Part shown: piece by piece, positions 4,301-14,332 of the stretch
Layout of the letters: every line of letters begins with the position of its first letter
Numbering within the stretch: the stretch's first letter is position 1
From: a virus
Lineage: Duplodnaviria > Heunggongvirae > Uroviricota > Caudoviricetes
Reading direction: 5' to 3' (one strand)
Virus record (IMG/VR): IMGVR_UViG_2879759574_000001
Length of the DNA stretch: 20,169 nt
Made by a program: the position numbers and the translations under genes
The notes under the pieces: model-generated
The model's input: the letters and a program-made list of their open reading frames with translations, nothing else
Database searches by the model: none
Told to the model about the DNA's origin: nothing

Positions 4301-4950
4301 GCCGCCATCTCCCTGACAAGTTTTTCTGCCTGCTGGCGAACTTGCGCCAGAAAGGCCTCACCACATGCCTCAAGTTCATCGCGCCCGATGTAGCTGATTG
4401 CCGGTCCCTTCCAGGTCTTGTCGAAAACGGCAATAGCACCAGCGAAGAAAGCACCGGTTGGCACCTGCTTCTCGTCTTTCGGGATAAACCAGGCAGGCAG
4501 TTCAAAACCAATACGCCCGCGAATAAAAGCAATATGATCCGCATCTTCCGGCCACCACACTTCGCTGGTGGCAGCTTTGATCAGGAAAACATAGCGCCCG
4601 CCCTTATCACGCATGGCACTGGCATGTTTCATGATGTAACGCATGCCGGTGATGTATTGCCCCTCATGCTGACTGGCGCGGCTGTATGGAGGATTTCCAA
4701 AGGCAGCACCTTTAAGCTCCGCAAGACGTTCTGACCAGTCATGCGCCAGCGCGTTGTCTTCCGCCGTGTAATACGCGGCACATTTGGCGTTATCACCGTC
4801 AGTAAACAGATCCAGAACAAACGGGCCAAACAGGGTGTTAATTCCCCAGAAAATGTTGTCCGGTGTGCGCCACTGATCGCCCACTTCCTTCAGTTCATGG
4901 GCTGGTTTGTTTCGCAACTCCACCAGCGCCTGGCAATATTTATTACTCAT
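4297..4950 (-). CDS. phage N6-adenine DNA methyltransferase (Dam family)
   Basis: FGNPPYS motif (NPPY catalytic signature), QWRTPDNIFWG N-terminal motif typical of phage Dam; preferred start is ATG at 4950 (MSNKYCQ), overlapping the upstream stop (TAATG); the track start at 4983 is a GTG. Confidence 0.75.
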   Translation of the reverse strand: MSNKYCQALVELRNKPAHELKEVGDQWRTPDNIFWGINTLFGPFVLDLFTDGDNAKCAAYYTAEDNALAHDWSERLAELKGAAFGNPPYSRASQHEGQYITGMRYIMKHASAMRDKGGRYVFLIKAATSEVWWPEDADHIAFIRGRIGFELPAWFIPKDEKQVPTGAFFAGAIAVFDKTWKGPAISYIGRDELEACGEAFLAQVRQQAEKLVREMAA

Positions 4951-5438
4951 TAAGCCCCCACGTAATTCCCTGACAGATACCACTCATCACCCGATACAGC
5001 GCGCTTGCTGCTTTTCCGTAAGCACCGCTCACGACGCGCCAGAAAATTGTTTCGTTCTGGCTGGGAGTGGCTTTCACGGAATGCCGCCATCCACACCGTT
5101 GCAGCACGACGGTATAAGCCCCTGGACTCCAGTTCTTCAGCCTGGCGGGTCAGGCACAAAATCACCCGGGGATCGTTAGTGCCGACATAGAAATTGCGCA
5201 CAGGTCTGGTTTCTCGAACTGATTGTGGTCCCGGTTCCTGCGCTCTCTCAGTCAGGCGCGGGAAATGTCTGCGTGTATCTCCTTCACAACGGTGAGCCAC
5301 ACGCCCACTCTGACGTAACTTGCTTGCAGACTGCAGAACGCGCTGCCGTGAGTAACCTGCAAAAGCATCCGCAATGTCTCCGGAAGTACACCCCGGATGG
5401 GCTTCAATGAATTTCTGAACGTCATTCAAAAGACTCAT
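4950..5438 (-). CDS. YfdN-like protein with C-terminal PerC-like motif (163 aa)
   Basis: Start set at ATG 5438 (MSLLNDVQKF...); the longer track ORF has a low-complexity N-extension overlapping the rep gene. C-terminal AEELESRGLYRRAATVWMAAF shares the PerC-type motif with the ORF at 9181-9462. Confidence 0.45.
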   Translation of the reverse strand: MSLLNDVQKFIEAHPGCTSGDIADAFAGYSRQRVLQSASKLRQSGRVAHRCEGDTRRHFPRLTERAQEPGPQSVRETRPVRNFYVGTNDPRVILCLTRQAEELESRGLYRRAATVWMAAFRESHSQPERNNFLARRERCLRKSSKRAVSGDEWYLSGNYVGA

Positions 5439-6006
5439 GCTCACCCCTGAATCCTGCCGGGATCTGGCTGTAGTCCACGTTGTCGTAACTGGCTTTGAAG
5501 TACGGGTCTTCACGTTTTTCTGTGTGCGTGCAGACGGACGGCGATAAGCGCAGGGAAAGCTCATCCCATTTTTCCCGCAACTTCGACGGGCTGAGCACGT
5601 TACGGCACCAGAACGGATCGCGGCTGACGCGGCTGTACATCTCGCAGATTTGTTTGTGAGTACGGCCATCCTGTACACACATCAGGCGAATTTCGTTTGC
5701 CCAGGCTGTCCAGTTCGGTTCTTTGGGACGAACCACCTCGCCGTCACATTCGGCAGCCTGCTCGTACAGGGCGATGATTTTTTTCCAGAGCCACTGTGCG
5801 CAGGTCAAATCATCCTGCGTCCCCCACTGGCGCTTTTTAGGGCTGAATACAACCGCATCAGGATGGCGAGTTAAAAAATCCTGTTCAGCCGTCTGCGTGT
5901 CCGGTTGCGAAGCGTCCGGACGAGAAGGTTTTTTATCTGACGGATCATGTTTTGATTTTACTGACGGATCCCCGCCAGATTCTGACGGGTGAAAACCCGC
6001 TTTTTT
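5422..6006 (-). pseudogene. 3' portion of phage replication-initiation gene, separated from its 5' portion (13478-13860) by IS66
   Basis: Frame continues in phase from 13860 across the 8-bp duplication: ...SKSGKKA | GFHPSESGGDPSVKSKHDPSDKK...; the track start at 6021 is a TTG inside the IS66 end. Confidence 0.65.
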
Positions 6007-6043
6007 GTAAGCGTGCAGCAAGAACCGTATTGACGGGGATGTG

Positions 6044-7580
6044 TTATTCAGTCGGCAGTGCTACGCGCCAGGGGAGCAGTTCGCCGACCCGGTTTATCGG
6101 CCAGTCGGCTATGACGTCAAGTACATAGCGGAGGTAGCTTTCTGGCTCCACTCCGTTCAGTTTGCACGTCCCGATCAGGCTGTACAGCAGCGCTCCCCGC
6201 TCTCCTCCATGATCCGAACCGAAGAACAGGTAGTTTTTGCGGCCCAGACTGACCATCCGCAACGCATTTTCAGCGATGTTATTGTCCGCCTCAGCCCAGC
6301 CATCATCTGCATAGTACGTCAGCGCCGGCCACTGGTTCAGGGCGTATGCGAACGCTTTCGCCAGTTCTGAGTGTCGCGACAGGGTTTTCATCTTTTCACG
6401 CAGCCAGCTTTCCAGGGATTTCAGCAGCGGTTTCGTTTTCAACTGACGTTCGGCAAGGCGCTGCTCCGCCGTCATTCCCCTTATCTCTGCCTCGATGGCG
6501 TACAGTTCGCCGATCCGTTTCAGCGCTTCCTCCGTCAGGGCTGACGGGGTGCGAACGTGCACATCGTGGATTTTACGGCGGGCGTGAGCCCAACAGGCGG
6601 CTTCCGTTATCCGGCCATCCCGGTACAGCTCGTTGAACCCGGCGTATGCATCCGCCTGCAGTACACCACTGAACCCCGCAAGATGGGTCTGCGGATGGAT
6701 GCCTTTTCTGTCCGGGCTGTAAGCGAACCACACCGCCGGCGCCAGCGTTGACCCGGCGTTACGGTCGTCACGAACGTAGGTCCATAACCGCCCGGTCTTC
6801 GTTTTCTTATTGCCTGGCAACAGCACCGGGACAGGCGTGTCATCAGCATGGAGCTTACCGTCAGTCAGCACATAGTCCTGAAGCGCTTCTTCCAGCGGTG
6901 ACAGTAGCCGGCAGCATGCATCCACCCAGCCCGACAGCAGTGAACGACTCAGCTCCACGCCCTGGCGGCCGTACATTTCAGACTGGCGGTACAGCGGGGT
7001 GTGCTCTGCATACTTTGAGATCAGCACGCGGGCCAGCAGCCCCGGTCCTGCGATACCCCGCTCGATGGGCCGTGAAGGCGCGGGGCCTGCACGATGGCAT
7101 CGCACTGAGTACAGGCATGCTTTTCACGTACAGTCCGGATAACCCGGAAGACGCTGCGCATCAACTCCAGCTGTTCGGCGGCATCCTCACCCGGATAGCT
7201 CAGTGAGCCTCCACATTCCGGGCAGCATGACGCTGCCGGCAGCAGCCGTTTTTCATCGCGGGGGAGTGATTCGGGAACGGTTTGCGGGTGCGGGTTTGAC
7301 GCAGCGGGCGCTGCACGGCCGGGTCGTCAACCCGACCGGTAAGGGTATCACTTTCTTTCTGAAGTGCCTTCAGGTCAGCTTCCATCTGTGCGATACGACG
7401 GGAGACTTTTTCGGAGCGGCTGCCGAAGTTCATCCGGCGCAGCTTATCCAGCTGTGCCTGCAGATGGTCTATTTCGCGTTCACGCTCGTTCAGCTTTTCC
7501 AGCAGGGCACGGTTCAGCGCCTCCTGTTCGGCAAGGAGACGTTTCAGTGCATTGATATCGTCAGGAAGTGAGCTGCTCAT
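6044..7580 (-). pseudogene. IS66 tnpC (transposase) disrupted by two 1-bp deletions
   Basis: Split into ORFs 7200-7580 and 6044-7105; compared with intact copy 2, one G/C is missing in the homopolymer run at 7273-7275 and one in the run at 7082-7085. Confidence 0.8.
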
Positions 7581-7628
7581 ACCGGGTATATTACCAGGCT
7601 CATTCAGCGTCGACCAGGATAAAGAGGC

Positions 7629-7976
7629 TTACAACATAGTCAGGGACGTAAGCAGTCTTTTAGGCTGCCGCCAGTCGATACCTTCAAGGAGCATCGCCAG
7701 CTGTGCCGGTGTGAGGAACACTTTGCCATCCCGGGCTGACGGCCAGGCGAAGCGGCCGCGCTCCAGCCGTTTGGTCAGCAGACACAGTCCATCGCCGGTA
7801 GACCAGAGGAGCTTTACCTGACTGCCATTACGCCCACGGAAGATAAAAACGTGACCTGACATCGGATCGTCTTTCAGCGTCGTCTGCACCTTTGCCGCCA
7901 GGCCGTTGAAGCCATTTCTCATATCGGTGATACCGGCAACCAGCCAAATTTTGGTCCCGGAAGGTAACGGGATCAT
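7629..7976 (-). CDS. IS66 TnpB (Orf2), 115 aa
   Basis: Identical protein to ORF 14329-14676; typical IS66 orf2 position with ATGA overlap to tnpA. Confidence 0.85.
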   Translation of the reverse strand: MIPLPSGTKIWLVAGITDMRNGFNGLAAKVQTTLKDDPMSGHVFIFRGRNGSQVKLLWSTGDGLCLLTKRLERGRFAWPSARDGKVFLTPAQLAMLLEGIDWRQPKRLLTSLTML

Positions 7977-8374
7977 CGCTTCAGTTCCTGTATCAGCAGA
8001 GTCAGGAGCTTTTCGCTGACATTGCCATTGAAGCGGAGCGTCCCGTGCCGGAACGTTACCTCACAGCTGATACTGAGGGTTTCCGGATCCTCTGCGAGCG
8101 ATTCTGGCTGTTCGGCAGCTGCATCGAGAGTCACAGGAAGTAGCTGGGGGCTCTCTGAAGAAGGTAATAGCAGCTTTCCCTCGCGCCATTGTTGTCGCCA
8201 TTTGAACAACAGATTGGCGTTAATGCCATTTTCAAGAGCAAGTTTTGAGATGGATATCCCGGGTTCACAGGAGGCAGCAACGAGCTGCTGTTTAAATTCG
8301 GGAGGATAATTAGGGCAGCCTTTTCGCCTGCCGGGATTCACATTTTTCTGCATATCTGACACTTTGGTTCCCAC
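7973..8374 (-). CDS. IS66 TnpA (Orf1), 133 aa, intact in this copy
   Basis: 133-aa ORF; the copy-2 counterpart is broken into 80-aa and 78-aa ORFs by a 1-bp deletion. Confidence 0.8.
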   Translation of the reverse strand: MGTKVSDMQKNVNPGRRKGCPNYPPEFKQQLVAASCEPGISISKLALENGINANLLFKWRQQWREGKLLLPSSESPQLLPVTLDAAAEQPESLAEDPETLSISCEVTFRHGTLRFNGNVSEKLLTLLIQELKR

Positions 8375-8465
8375 TACTTATTTGGTGGACACCACTTTGT
8401 CTAATTCGTCAGATTCTGACCAGACGGTTCAGGCTGTACGCTTACTTTCCAATGGGCACTCATGT

Positions 8466-8909
8466 TTATACGCTGACCTTACAATCAATCACCGCTTTTA
8501 AATTTTCAGCATTGCTTCCCTGACGCTTCCACGCGCTGTAAATATCTTTATCCCACGCTTTACCAGCTTTTGTTTGATAGCCTGCTTCATTGATCCGTTC
8601 AGCTATCACACGCCCATTATCAAATCCCTGTTGGATGGTATCGGCAATGATCTTTATAACTGCCGTTTCGTTATATGGCTTTGGTGGGATGTTCGGCTTT
8701 CCGGCAATAAGCGACGCAGCGGCTTTTTCCATGCGCTCCACCAGCCCAAGCATTCGTGAATCAATAGACTTTTCCGGCTGTCCCAGCTTCATGCGAATCG
8801 CATCAACAAGCCAGGAGGTTTTATCCCCTCCAGAAGCGAGAACAGACCGATTAAACTCATCCTGCAATTCAGATGGGATGCGGAACGCGATCAGATTAGA
8901 TTTGCTCAT
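8466..8909 (-). CDS. hypothetical DNA-binding protein, putative ribbon-helix-helix N-terminus
   Basis: MSKSNLIAFRIPSELQDEFNRSVLASGGDKTSWLVDAIRMKL has a strand-helix-helix pattern like Arc/CopG-type RHH; divergent from the iteron array and PerC-like gene; start ambiguous (ATG 8921 or 8909), weak RBS. Confidence 0.35.
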   Translation of the reverse strand: MSKSNLIAFRIPSELQDEFNRSVLASGGDKTSWLVDAIRMKLGQPEKSIDSRMLGLVERMEKAAASLIAGKPNIPPKPYNETAVIKIIADTIQQGFDNGRVIAERINEAGYQTKAGKAWDKDIYSAWKRQGSNAENLKAVIDCKVSV

Positions 8910-8940
8910 TGCAAAGACCATATCAGTGAGTAATATCCAT

Positions 8941-8970
8941 ACAGTATACCACTGTATAACACTGTTATAC
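8941..8970. repeat. three tandem ~10-bp repeats ACAGTATAC / CACTGTATAA / CACTGTTATAC in the promoter region of the RHH-like gene
   Basis: Direct reading of sequence; half-site-like CTGT/ACAG elements but not a canonical CTGT-N8-ACAG LexA box. Confidence 0.3.
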
Positions 8971-9022
8971 GCTCAAATATCAGCCAGAAAATAACGGACC
9001 AATCACAAAGCTATCGCTGTGT

Positions 9023-9145
9023 TGTTGGTTCAGAGCTGGGCTGTGTTGGTTCAAAATGAGTTGATGTTGGTTCAATATTTTAGAAAAAACATAATAAAAA
9101 CAACGATCTTTACAAATTGAACCAACTGAACCAACTGAACCAACA
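9023..9145. repeat. iteron array: 3 direct TGTTGGTTCA repeats at 21-bp spacing, AT-rich spacer, then 3 tandem inverted copies TGAACCAAC
   Basis: Direct copies at 9023-9032, 9044-9053, 9065-9074; inverted copies at 9118-9126, 9127-9135, 9136-9144; the inverted set overlaps the -35 region of a TATAAT (9162-9167) upstream of the PerC-like gene. Confidence 0.6.
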
Positions 9146-9180
9146 CCTTTTTGCTTATCTATATAATCTGAGAGGCAGAA

Positions 9181-9462
9181 ATGATAAGGGACAGGAAAGC
9201 TGAAGAGCTGGAGTCAAAAGGGCTATACCGGAGAGCTGCCGCACGATGGATGGAAGTCATGCTGTTATGCACCGAGGACGATGATCGGGAATGGATAAAG
9301 CGCCGCCGTGAAACGTGTCTGGAGAACGTGAAGCGCCCGCCCGTGAAGGTTGAGGAATTTGGCGACCTGCATAAAGCTGTTACCGAAACGCAACACCGCA
9401 TGGGGATAGCGCAACCGAACGGTAACGCCTTCCGGTTAAATGGCGGCAAGAGGCAAAGGTAG
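9181..9462 (+). CDS. PerC-family transcriptional activator-like protein (93 aa)
   Basis: MIRDRKAEELESKGLYRRAAARWMEVML...RRRETCLENV matches the PerC/Pch signature as I recall it; good RBS (GAGAGG) before ATG. Confidence 0.5.
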   Translation: MIRDRKAEELESKGLYRRAAARWMEVMLLCTEDDDREWIKRRRETCLENVKRPPVKVEEFGDLHKAVTETQHRMGIAQPNGNAFRLNGGKRQR

Positions 9463-9758
9463 ACCACCAGAGGGAAATCATCCTCTGGCTGGCGGTTTCT
9501 GGTATTTCGGGACAAGTACGCGCGCGCGTAGCACCCAATCGGTGAGGAAATAGCGGCGACCTGAATGGTCAAAATCACAACGCAGCTATCCCCGTAAGCA
9601 GCGCTTAACGGAATAGCAGTAACCTGAATCCAGTGGGGAGGGGGTAGTCAAATCTCTACAGCCCTGACTATCCGGGACTGCCCGCCCATCGTTTTTTTAT
9701 ACCCGCGAAAAATGAAATTTAATCCGGGCGTGTTTCATCCTTCCAGAGGGTATGACGT

Positions 9759-9944
9759 ATGACACCACGCGAAATAGCCTTATTGACCATCGCCAAACTT
9801 GAGCACGGAGGCCACCAGCTTACACAGGCAGATCAACGGGAGATAGAACGATCAGTTAATGCCGATATAGCCCGGCGCGACAGGTTCCGCGAAATGATGC
9901 GAGCACCTGCCTACCAGTGGAAGAAGCCAGCGCCGCGCAGGTAG
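9759..9944 (+). CDS. hypothetical 61-aa basic protein
   Basis: ORF with possible RBS AGAGGG upstream; no recognisable motif. Confidence 0.25.
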   Translation: MTPREIALLTIAKLEHGGHQLTQADQREIERSVNADIARRDRFREMMRAPAYQWKKPAPRR

Positions 9945-10064
9945 ATATGGGATTATTCCACATGTACCTTATGCGTATTAAGCAAATTTCCTTTATTCAC
10001 CTTTACAGAATTGTGAGTACGTCAGTATCGTTATCCTTCCGATTCGCATTTATTCAGGATTTGC

Positions 10065-10607
10065 ATGTACCAGCTAAAGATAACCATCCGAGACAGCAAA
10101 CCACCTATATGGCGGCGTGTGCTGGTTCCAGAGCAAATCCCCTTTAGTAAACTTCATGCCGTGATCCAGTTAGCTTTTGGCTGGAATGACGAACACCTGT
10201 ATATGTTCGAGAAAGGGCGTAAAGGTGATCCAGGTAGCGAGTATCGCGTATGGGGTGAGGATGAAAGCATGGGTAACGCGGCAATCACGCCACTATGGGC
10301 GGCGCTCCAGAATGAGGGTGACAAGCTGGTTTACACGTATGACTTTGGCGACTGGTGGGATTGCGTCATTGTGCTGGAGAAGCAAACACACGATACGAGT
10401 AATCAGCCCATTAGCTGCCTGCGTGGGAAAGGCACCACCCCGGCGGAAAACTCAGGCGGCTTGCATGGTTACAATGAATTGCTATTACAGGCCAGAGAGT
10501 CTGATAATCCTGAGCAGGCCGAGATCCACAATTTCCTGATGCTGGATATTGAACGCCGGGTTTACGACCTGAGCCGCATCAACGACAGATTGCAGGCTAT
10601 TAACTGA
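10065..10607 (+). CDS. pRiA4b ORF-3-like family protein (180 aa)
   Basis: N-terminus MYQLKITIRDSKPPIWRRVLVPEQIPFSKLHAVIQLAFGWNDEHLYMF matches the characteristic start of the pRiA4b ORF-3-like family (YxLKxTL...PPIWRR..VP...F.DLH..IQ...GW...HL.F); RBS AGGA present. Confidence 0.6.
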   Translation: MYQLKITIRDSKPPIWRRVLVPEQIPFSKLHAVIQLAFGWNDEHLYMFEKGRKGDPGSEYRVWGEDESMGNAAITPLWAALQNEGDKLVYTYDFGDWWDCVIVLEKQTHDTSNQPISCLRGKGTTPAENSGGLHGYNELLLQARESDNPEQAEIHNFLMLDIERRVYDLSRINDRLQAIN

Positions 10608-10959
10608 CCCGCATGTATTCACCTGATATTGCGTTGTCAGCGCCGCCAGTATCGCGCATAACAGCGCACTGACCGGGTAAACCGTAGCGCACGACCGTTG
10701 CGTTAGTATCACCGCCGCGCCGTATCTGGCGCGATTCATACACTGTCACCCGCTCAAGCAGTCCACCAGCAACCATGCTTTCCAGTGTGCGCCGGGTTGA
10801 TTCGAGCTGGTGACGCTTATCGAACGACACCATGCCATGAAGCAGGTAGGCCACACCCGACACATCGAACGGCGGCGCACCAATCTCACCAGTCACCCAT
10901 TCGAGGTTATCCGGTTCAAAGTAGCTAAGTATCTCTTTTTTGCGACTGGTCATTCTCAT
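10600..10959 (-). CDS. hypothetical 119-aa protein, convergent with and overlapping the pRiA4b-like gene by 8 nt
   Basis: ORF with RBS AAGGA; segment RTLESMVAGGLLERV could be a winged-helix recognition element, but that is unverified. Confidence 0.3.
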   Translation of the reverse strand: MRMTSRKKEILSYFEPDNLEWVTGEIGAPPFDVSGVAYLLHGMVSFDKRHQLESTRRTLESMVAGGLLERVTVYESRQIRRGGDTNATVVRYGLPGQCAVMRDTGGADNAISGEYMRVS

Positions 10960-11187
10960 GGCTGGCTGATTCCTTATTGTGGGATAGCACTATCATACAA
11001 TAAGTGGGTTAAAGGGAGAGCGTTACCGCCTGATATGCTGTATGAATAACAACCAAATTTCAGGGGCGGAAAAAGATATGGGGGTACTTTTGGGGGTATC
11101 TATAAAAAATGAACAATAAAAAAGGCAACAAAAACAAAGCTTATCGCCTATGTGTATTGTTCCCATTATCCCATTTAAATCAATAAG

Positions 11188-11691
11188 TTACACATCATTA
11201 GTACGTTCCTTATTTCTTGACTGGGACAAATTTGGGACCGATGGGTTCAGAATCGAGTCTATTTGCCGTGCGTGTTCGGTAAGGTGATTAGGTGCGAGGT
11301 GAGCATATCGACGAACCATTTCGATAGACTCCCAGCCTCCCATTTCCTGTAACACTGATAACGGGACTCCGGCTTGAACCAGCCAACTTGCCCAGGTGTG
11401 TCTCAAGTCGTGAAATCTGAAATCATCAATACCTGCTCGTCTCAGCGCCGCTTTCCAGGCTGTGTTTGCGTCATACCGCATCTTCCTGACTGTTGGCGCT
11501 TTCGTTCCGTCTGGTTTGGTACAGCTTTCCTTATACACAAATACCCAACGGTGATGATTCCCGATTTGTTTTTTCAATACGCGACATGCAGTATCATTCA
11601 GCGCAACGCCAATTGCGCGGTTTGATTTACTCTCTTCCGGGTTTATCCATGCCACCCGGTGAGGTGTACTGGCAATAGCGGACACTACCAT
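11188..11691 (-). pseudogene. tyrosine recombinase (phage integrase), C-terminal catalytic half only
   Basis: Contains HDLRHTWAS (His-x-x-Arg box) and VRRYAHL (catalytic Tyr); the N-terminal roughly 200 aa expected for an integrase are absent and the ORF abuts an IS3-family fragment. Confidence 0.75.
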
Positions 11692-12293: not shown

Positions 12294-13861
<1,568 letters not shown>

Positions 13862-13931
13862 TAAGCGTACAGCCTGAACCGTCTGGTCAGAATCTGACGA
13901 ATTAGACAAAGTGGTGTCCACCAAATAAGTA

Positions 13932-14332
13932 GTGGGAACCAAAGTGTCAGATATGCAGAAAAATGTGAATCCCGGCAGGCGAAAAGGCTGCCCTAATTAT
14001 CCTCCCGAATTTAAACAGCAGCTCGTTGCTGCCTCCTGTGAACCCGGGATATCCATCTCAAAACTTGCTCTGAAAATGGCATTAACGCCAATCTGTTGTT
14101 CAAATGGCGACAACAATGGCGCGAGGGAAAGCTGCTATTACCTTCTTCAGAGAGCCCCCAGCTACTTCCTGTGACTCTCGATGCAGCTGCCGAACAGCCA
14201 GAATCGCTCGCAGAGGATCCGGAAACCCTCAGTATCAGCTGTGAGGTAACGTTCCGGCACGGGACGCTCCGCTTCAATGGCAATGTCAGCGAAAAGCTCC
14301 TGACTCTGCTGATACAGGAACTGAAGCGATGA
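13932..14332 (+). pseudogene. IS66 tnpA with 1-bp deletion
   Basis: CTTGCTCTGAAAATGG here versus CTTGCTCTTGAAAATGG in copy 1; ORF split into 13932-14174 and 14096-14332. Confidence 0.75.

Follow-up and report, generated by a model that had tools for sequence, protein, structure and literature searches.

The stretch of DNA analysed here, hereafter the window (20,169 bp), is an E. coli-like mosaic composed of pieces of a lambdoid prophage (Q, RusA, Dam and an O-like C-terminus), a CI/CII region and insertion sequences, namely IS1, two IS66-family copies and one IS3-family element. Within it, an RHH-like gene and a divergent perC-family gene lie on either side of an array of short repeats (Table 1), in which the 9-mer GTTGGTTCA occurs six times within 123 bp, with no further copy in the window. 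The largest 9-mer cluster (both strands, 130 bp) found in 200 dinucleotide-preserving shuffles of the sequence held two copies in 199 cases and three in one, compared to the six observed.

Table 1. Positions of the repeat array, its neighbouring genes and the borders of the island remnant in the window
Feature	Position	Strand	Remarks
ISEc22 (IS66 family) copy	6044..8444	-	island homology ends at ~8444, 21 bp past the stop of the RHH-like gene
RHH-like gene, 147 aa	8466..8909	-	longest ORF 151 aa, start 8921
Palindromic block GTATAACAGTGTTATACAGTGGTATACTGTATGG (gene's strand)	8939..8972	-	30-63 bp upstream of the RHH-like gene
Spaced (inner) iteron set, 3x GTTGGTTCA	9024..9074: 9024-9032, 9045-9053, 9066-9074	+	21 bp start to start
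AT-rich spacer, presumed DNA unwinding region	9075..9117	.	43 bp, ~20% GC; right part AAAACAAnnATCTTTACAAAT conserved
Abutting inverted (outer) iteron set, 3x TGAACCAAC	9118, 9127, 9136 (9118..9144)	-	head to tail
Outward-facing flank ACCTTTTTGCTTATCTATATAAT	9145..9180	+	-10-like TATAAT 9162-9167; Shine-Dalgarno-like GAGAGG before the perC ATG at 9181
perC-family gene, 93 aa	9181..9462	+	first gene after the module; PF06069, E 3.7e-30
Tyrosine integrase C-terminal fragment	11188..11691	-	PF00589, E 5.6e-32; interrupted by the IS3-family element

Most of what the first-pass annotation had described can be found in the sequence. The three copies of TGTTGGTTCA at 9023, 9044 and 9065 are present at the exact 21-bp spacing that it claimed, as are the three contiguous inverted copies at 9118-9144, which abut on the other strand, and the ACTGTATA-type repeats at 8941-8970, which take the forms ACAGTATAC, ACTGTATAA and ACTGTTATAC. 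The AT-rich spacer is also there (GC is 0.20 over 9060-9119), but it measures 43 bp and not the 40 bp given. The label PerC-like agrees with the Pfam match, and relatives of the gene carry the RefSeq name ‘PerC family transcriptional regulator’. The two-helical-turn phasing, which had been taken as a sign of either a cooperative operator or an origin or partition site, is real and strictly conserved, and we would read it as the iteron geometry of an origin.

The geometry of the array is more constant than much of the DNA within it. Across 33 distinct homologous modules, both the 21-bp spacing and the 43-bp length of the spacer are invariant; the DNA between the iterons diverges among these modules, and the right half of the spacer is at least 90% conserved. 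The 23-mer TTTACAAATTGAACCAACTGAAC, which spans the junction, has exact matches at 41 loci of species-representative genomes, distributed over ~20 genera of Enterobacterales (Erwinia, Rosenbergiella, Pantoea, Serratia, Yersinia, Rahnella, Leclercia, Cedecea, Citrobacter, Pectobacterium, Brenneria, Lonsdalea, Morganella, Proteus and others). When sought in other genomes, the module was thus found in ~20 genera. In E. coli, the array lies upstream of a perC-family gene in 87 complete genomes, and its alleles (L253, L250, L252 and L040, compared over window positions 9010-9180) have two, three or four abutting units and an A-run that varies by one base in either direction; in one allele, 108 bp are deleted, and with them the third spaced iteron, the AT spacer, the abutting units and the -10 element. 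This gain and loss of units and the deletion are compatible with relaxed constraint on an orphan or distal copy. We found nothing relevant to the motif GTTGGTTCA itself in the searchable literature. The array had no Rfam match at gathering thresholds, and a structured RNA over the array was rejected as a candidate, as a permissive threshold gave only sub-threshold miRNA and sRNA models that reflect the inverted repeats. The region downstream of perC had a folding z of -1.6.

Intact islands and the remnant in the window

An intact relative is found in E. coli SWHEFF_68, in which an island of ~20 kb adjoins tRNA-Thr (thrW). This island begins with an integrase, a small HTH regulator, AntA/B, Ash and a 918-aa Rep with a Zn-ribbon, a TOPRIM domain and DUF927, continues with genes annotated as encoding DNA ejection/injection proteins and three small genes, one of them RHH-like, and ends with the array, perC, a pRiA4b ORF-3 family gene and an integrase fragment. 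It carries a further cluster of the same 9-mer, and we call the rep-proximal cluster module A and the array found in the window module B. Module A begins 26 bp after the TOPRIM+DUF927 gene and consists of three abutting copies, an AT-rich stretch and three inverted copies; in the E. coli thrW island, the two modules are 7.4 kb apart and mutually inverted. The order rep, module A, cargo, RHH-like gene and module B recurs in Cedecea davisae, with the modules 6.7 kb apart, and in Serratia fonticola, with the modules 2.1 kb apart, and an island with a 68% identical Rep (L101) has its modules 8.4 kb apart. As judged by these sequence comparisons, the window's copy is the second, inverted module that intact relatives in Escherichia, Cedecea and Serratia carry 2-8 kb from the rep-proximal one. 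The two modules can also be adjacent: in the GenBank record of Klebsiella phage P12620-1, 11 copies directly follow a gene for a 711-aa DUF927 protein (71% identical over the helicase and the C-terminus), and modules A and B lie side by side, followed by a TATATA box and then by capsid genes.

The window retains only one side of such an island. Collinearity with the intact island L001 is limited to positions 8445-11190, where identity is 99.7%, and ISEc22 truncates the island just beyond the RHH-like gene; the rep side is absent past ISEc22. Because a tblastn search gave no Rep homologue in the 20-kb window, we consider the array to be orphaned; the first-pass annotation had overlooked this lack of an initiator gene. 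What is left of the integrative island is the distal block and the integrase fragment, which forms the right-hand end of a conserved block running from module B and perC through a 119-aa ORF to the truncated integrase gene; Erwinia and E. coli relatives have comparable integrase fragments past the module. A search for repeats of the thrW 3′ end that might mark attR found none of at least 12 nt, and the junction with the IS66 element does not occur in any complete E. coli genome. In E. coli O111:H8 strain 8E, an independent event had the same outcome: a deletion associated with IS3 took everything between the integrase and an injection-protein gene.

Several smaller features of the window deserve mention. 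The lambdoid O-like replication gene is apparently split: its C-terminal part (5422-6021, minus strand) abuts ISEc22, and an HTH_36 domain, the O-type N-terminus, is fused in frame to the IS3 rve ORF (12623-13864, plus strand), which is adjoined by the second IS66-family copy (~13.9-16.3 kb, in the opposite orientation). This arrangement suggests an IS-mediated inversion or rearrangement. The window has two PerC-domain genes, because a 242-aa ORF in the lambdoid fragment (4950-5678, minus strand) also ends in a PerC domain (E 8.8e-9). Two ORFs downstream of perC, of 61 aa (9759-9944) and 119 aa (10600-10959), recur in islands of other genera (L072, L228, L235 and L238); family searches gave no assignment for either.

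Association and covariation of the iterons with Rep

We examined the relation between the iterons and Rep in two samples. In the first, 80 viral-contig loci were picked only by homology to Rep (at least 77% identity). Nearly all of them (74 of the 80) have three or more exact copies of GTTGGTTCA within 450 bp after rep, in an array that begins 27-59 bp from the end of the Rep match, and almost no GTTGGTTCA is found elsewhere in the ~7.7 kb of the Rep-chosen loci. The six exceptions use other 9-mers and keep both the layout and the flank TTTTTGyTTATATAC. In the second sample, viral contigs were scanned for two abutting iterons, which yielded ~120 loci; in nearly all of those with at least four copies, a Rep homologue (55-100% identity) ends 25-70 bp from the array, and in many, modules A and B merge into one quasi-palindromic origin of ~270 bp. 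The module lies directly 3′ of rep at 15 of the 41 genome loci.

The sequence of the iteron varies together with the C-terminus of Rep. The 70 GTTGGTTCA loci retain the Rep motif (S/N)GRG(Y/F)Q(R/K)K(S/G)PR(I/V), represented by the wing motif SGRGYQRKSPRI, and each of five alternative 9-mers is paired with a changed motif: DGKKFQRKSPRI with GGTGGTTCA, DGRGYQRKTPRI with GTCGGTTCA, SGRGYQGRVREG with GTTGTCTC, KDRFKKKAVRV with ACGGGTTCA and QDRYRRKALKRI with ACGGGTTAC. The relationship is graded, in that small changes in the C-terminal wing motif accompany changes of one or two iteron bases and large changes accompany large ones. Graded covariation of this kind is what characterises an initiator and the site it acts on. 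It also provides a working rule for this satellite family, which spans ~20 genera: origin specificity is predicted by the 9-mer that follows a TOPRIM/DUF927 gene, taken with the wing motif of Rep.

The same features are found in origins that have been described for other satellites. SaPI Reps are self-loading helicases with a C-terminal winged helix that binds iterons located just after rep (PMC9371898), and SaPI origins have an AT-rich centre flanked by oppositely directed iterons, no fewer than two on each side, with one hexamer thought to assemble on either side (PMC9371898). Our Rep and its modules resemble them in the iterons directly downstream of rep, in the central AT-rich region between opposed sets of at least two iterons, in the specificity set by the C-terminal domain of Rep and in a homologous helicase core, as the DUF927 part matches a solved ‘Pathogenicity island protein’ (8tch, E 1.8e-11); this part also matches the SCCmec Cch helicase (5dgk). 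They differ in that the iterons are 9 nt long, compared to 5-6 nt in SaPIs, whose hosts are Gram-positive, and in that the C-terminus of this Rep is a putative winged helix; its profile had no sequence match to a solved winged-helix domain in the PDB.

A close counterpart is the origin of EcCICFT073, the rep-ori segment of which was shown to replicate, in a study that also reported perC on some PICIs (Fillol-Salom et al. 2018, PMC6092414). We examined its sequence and found CTGTCTACC units arranged in the same way, with short iterons in two opposed sets around an AT-rich region and abutting 9-bp units at the outer edge. As in EcCICFT073, the module of the relatives lies directly 3′ of pri-rep, on islands of the type int-alpA-pri-rep that often carry perC. 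However, the iteron is GTTGGTTCA here and CTGTCTACC there, the initiator is a 918-aa TOPRIM+DUF927 Rep and not a protein annotated as ‘DNA primase family protein’ (1755 bp), and the copy studied here is detached, being 2-8 kb from rep in intact relatives and without rep in the window. No thrW island appears in Table S1 of PMC6092414. A more general likeness is to the iteron origins of theta plasmids and phage lambda, in which repeated initiator sites also stand beside an AT-rich unwinding element, but in our case the initiator is itself a helicase-primase and opposed iterons lie on both sides of the AT-rich region.

Because both its layout and the homology of its Rep match published origins, we place the array with the PICI/SaPI-type origins, as one with its own iteron and Rep lineage. 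The array has the opposed iteron sets around an AT-rich region (3 + 3, 43 bp, 20% GC) and an iteron that covaries with the C-terminal domain of the cognate Rep; it lacks the position directly 3′ of rep, a defining feature of these origins, since the 20 kb holds no rep gene, but homologous modules have it. We consider it highly probable from these comparisons that the array represents a complete origin module of PICI-like satellite islands of Enterobacterales, whose iteron GTTGGTTCA is read by Rep. Of the possibilities raised in the first-pass annotation, an origin and a link to an integrative element thus find support, in that the same iteron/AT-rich/iteron module follows pri-rep in PICI-like islands and covaries with the Rep C-terminus. 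The array is a recognisable element of a known kind rather than a new regulatory site. This leaves the current understanding of PICI replication unchanged, and gives a name to a repeat array that stands unannotated before perC in many E. coli genomes.

From the analogy with SaPI Rep, we infer that one Rep hexamer would assemble on each of the two iteron sets, which face each other across the 43-bp AT-rich stretch. This stretch would then melt, and the helicase would load itself and prime synthesis. The orphan array would be active only if a Rep of the same specificity arrived in trans. Such a trans-acting partner is plausible, because close relatives of the Rep gene with module A are present in 365 of 5,426 complete E. 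coli genomes.

Type Ib centromeres and attP arms also contain phased short repeats, both direct and inverted, and the array might therefore be a partition (centromere-like) site, as the first-pass annotation had suggested, or might provide a small integrative element with arm-type sites for its integrase. An integrase fragment does lie 2 kb away. However, we found no ParA/ParB or ParA/ParG domains, nor any other match to a partition protein, among the scanned neighbouring ORFs, and the suggestion of a partition site was dropped on this ground. The repeats follow Rep and not integrase, as they are found after rep in islands with differing integrases and attachment sites, and both putative arms are adjacent in the integrated state, unlike attP, which is split by integration. 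A role as partition or arm-type sites is thus extremely improbable.

Palindromes upstream of the RHH-like gene

The RHH-like family has an N-terminal strand-helix-helix pattern and a nearly invariant C-terminal helical domain, and is conserved in these islands. The RHH-like label that the gene had received is plausible, one homologue being named ‘Arc-like DNA binding domain protein’ by its source, but unproven, with only a weak PHROG match and no Pfam or NCBIfam match. In a structural model of moderate confidence, the protein has an extended N-terminal segment and then two helices, and a fold search with the model gave no significant match. The C-terminal domain (residues ~78-140, IAERLNEAGYQTKAGKAWDKDIYSAWKR) is confidently modelled and likewise had no significant structural match. 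The family is confined to the Enterobacterales and has no name in databases.

Just upstream of this gene is a palindromic block that includes a perfect 8-1-8 palindrome, GTATAACA-C-TGTTATAC, at 8954-8970. The block is kept beside RHH homologues of 62-77% identity whose other upstream DNA is unrelated. It becomes CTGTAAGACAGTGTAAGACA where the N-terminal strand of the protein reads LSVTFRV, not NL(I/V)AFR(I/V), and the iterons at these loci stay GTTGGTTCA. We take the palindromes as the operator of the RHH-like gene because they covary with the protein and the iterons do not. The ACTGTATA/GTATAAC palindromes (8939-8972) are thus, on the pattern of their conservation, likely to be the auto-operator and promoter of this gene, separate from the origin.

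These observations bear on the suggestion in the first-pass annotation of a cooperative multi-site operator, for which the RHH-like and the PerC-like protein would be the candidates. If the array were an operator of the Arc/Mnt, CopG or omega type for the adjacent RHH-like protein, controlling both the RHH and the perC promoters, the adjacency and divergence of the RHH-like gene would be accounted for. Omega-type sites, with their abutting short repeats, look alike. In addition, in 11 or more Enterobacterales species, a B-type module has an RHH homologue (52-68% identity) 70-250 bp away on its spaced-iteron side, and a genome scan with this result ruled out that the adjacency is an accident of E. 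coli. However, among 40 RHH loci chosen by protein homology, in which iterons were sought within 400 bp, 32 have no iteron, and all of these keep CGTATAACAnnGTTATACAGTGGTATACTGTAT, with its GTATAAC palindromes, just upstream of the gene. A changed N-terminal strand goes with changed palindromes and not with changed iterons; conversely, in islands with ACGGGTTAC iterons (L263 and L269), the N- and C-terminal domains of the RHH-like protein are unchanged, which also led us to reject the invariant C-terminal domain as the reader of the iterons. Moreover, the distance from the RHH operator to the first iteron ranges from 8 to ~165 bp, most loci have iterons beside rep without any RHH gene, and the module precedes many different genes. 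The repeats that covary with the RHH-like protein are the ACTGTATA/GTATAAC palindromes and not the GTTGGTTCA array. An operator role of the array for the RHH-like protein is thus very improbable and, by comparison of sequences, largely refuted, and one for the PerC-like protein is not supported either. Adjacency to an RHH-like gene is conserved across 11 species or more, and the module might serve a purpose other than initiation.

A GC-rich box, ACAAGTACGCGCGCG, lies after perC at ~9512-9526, and was also found at positions 690 and 2080 of L024 and 994 of L218. Some relatives have two copies, separated by 1390 bp, on either side of a block made up of a 73-aa ORF, the RHH-like gene, the array and perC; the box of Serratia fonticola is situated between the RHH operator and the array.

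The rep-distal module and perC

Two points go beyond the known picture of these origins: a second module, distant from rep and next to the RHH-like gene, is conserved, and it overlaps the promoter region of perC. The repeats had been said to overlap the -35 region of a promoter that feeds the PerC-like gene. Because the TATAAT is 17 bp downstream of the last iteron, the -35 position does fall inside that iteron, but no -35 hexamer can be recognised there, and a sigma-70 consensus scan found no promoter at threshold. The flank ACCTTTTTGCTTATCTATATAAT is homologous to the distal end of the contiguous origins beside rep, and in islands with iterons of other types the last iteron is followed by TTTTTGyTTATATAC; in the rep-proximal orientation, the place of the flank is taken by the 3′ end of rep. 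Because the flank is shared with the distal end of contiguous origins, the distal module has a conserved, outward-facing -10-like element, with iterons at the -35 position. We infer that Rep binding could affect the -10 element that faces perC.

This raises the question of whether the module is mainly a Rep-controlled transcriptional switch for the outward operon, perC in this case, rather than an origin that fires. Rep bound to the three abutting iterons would then repress or activate perC, coupling the expression of cargo to the replication of the island; such a function can coexist with that of an origin. It would fit the flank TTTTTGCTTATCTATATAAT, which lies at a fixed distance from the last iteron in distal modules beside rep, across iteron types, and is missing in the rep-proximal orientation, as well as the presence of perC after the module both in E. 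coli and at a divergent locus with a 50% identical PerC. Nevertheless, the failure to detect a sigma-70 promoter weighs against a switch, the genes downstream differ widely among genera, some modules (L101) are without the TATA flank, and a simple operator does not need the full iteron/AT-rich/iteron geometry. We therefore regard a mainly regulatory function as unlikely.

Two iteron regions separated by kilobases are also a feature of phage P4. Like these islands, P4 is a satellite, and it has a primase-helicase initiator (alpha) and short iterons at two cis sites, ori and crr, which lie 4.5 kb apart. In our set, two such regions are found in the relatives only (2.1-8.4 kb apart), and the window holds one. 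The type I iteron of P4 is TGTTCACC, which is bound by the alpha protein, unlike the GTTGGTTCA iteron here. A tblastn search of Rep against phage records gave no match that covered at least 80% of Rep, and P4 was absent among the matches listed. The parallel between P4 and PICIs has been drawn before (PMC6092414).

In one subfamily, the origin could be deliberately bipartite, with a rep-proximal module and an inverted one beside the RHH-like gene that bracket variable cargo, although we hold this only tentatively and consider it somewhat doubtful. The distal module would then be a crr-like or second initiation site and also a Rep-sensitive promoter for outward genes such as perC, and the bracketed cargo would comprise ejection or tape-measure genes captured from phages, together with P4 Beta-type genes and a toxin-like gene. 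A co-resident island of matching Rep specificity could fire the orphan in trans or switch the perC promoter. If this were true, satellite induction would be tied to the expression of a virulence-regulator gene or to its local amplification. Whether or not the distal module has such a role, IS-mediated decay leaves orphan origins beside perC, on which a resident satellite of the same specificity might act.

The stretch between the two modules looks like a variable cargo slot. In E. coli (L001, 5909-10567) it holds annotated DNA ejection/injection genes and a DUF2824 gene, and in Cedecea (L232, 1998-6396) a P4 ‘Beta protein’ gene (PF14350) and a gene for an SLT-domain protein. The island L101 carries genes for SSB, ProQ/FinO, PerC, a superinfection-immunity protein and a tape measure protein, and has a chloramphenicol acetyltransferase gene (13426-14103) directly after its distal module. 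In Pantoea coffeiphila (L214, ~4438-6391), a segment consisting of a 208-aa ORF, the RHH gene and the origin module is tandemly duplicated, in units of 1251 bp.
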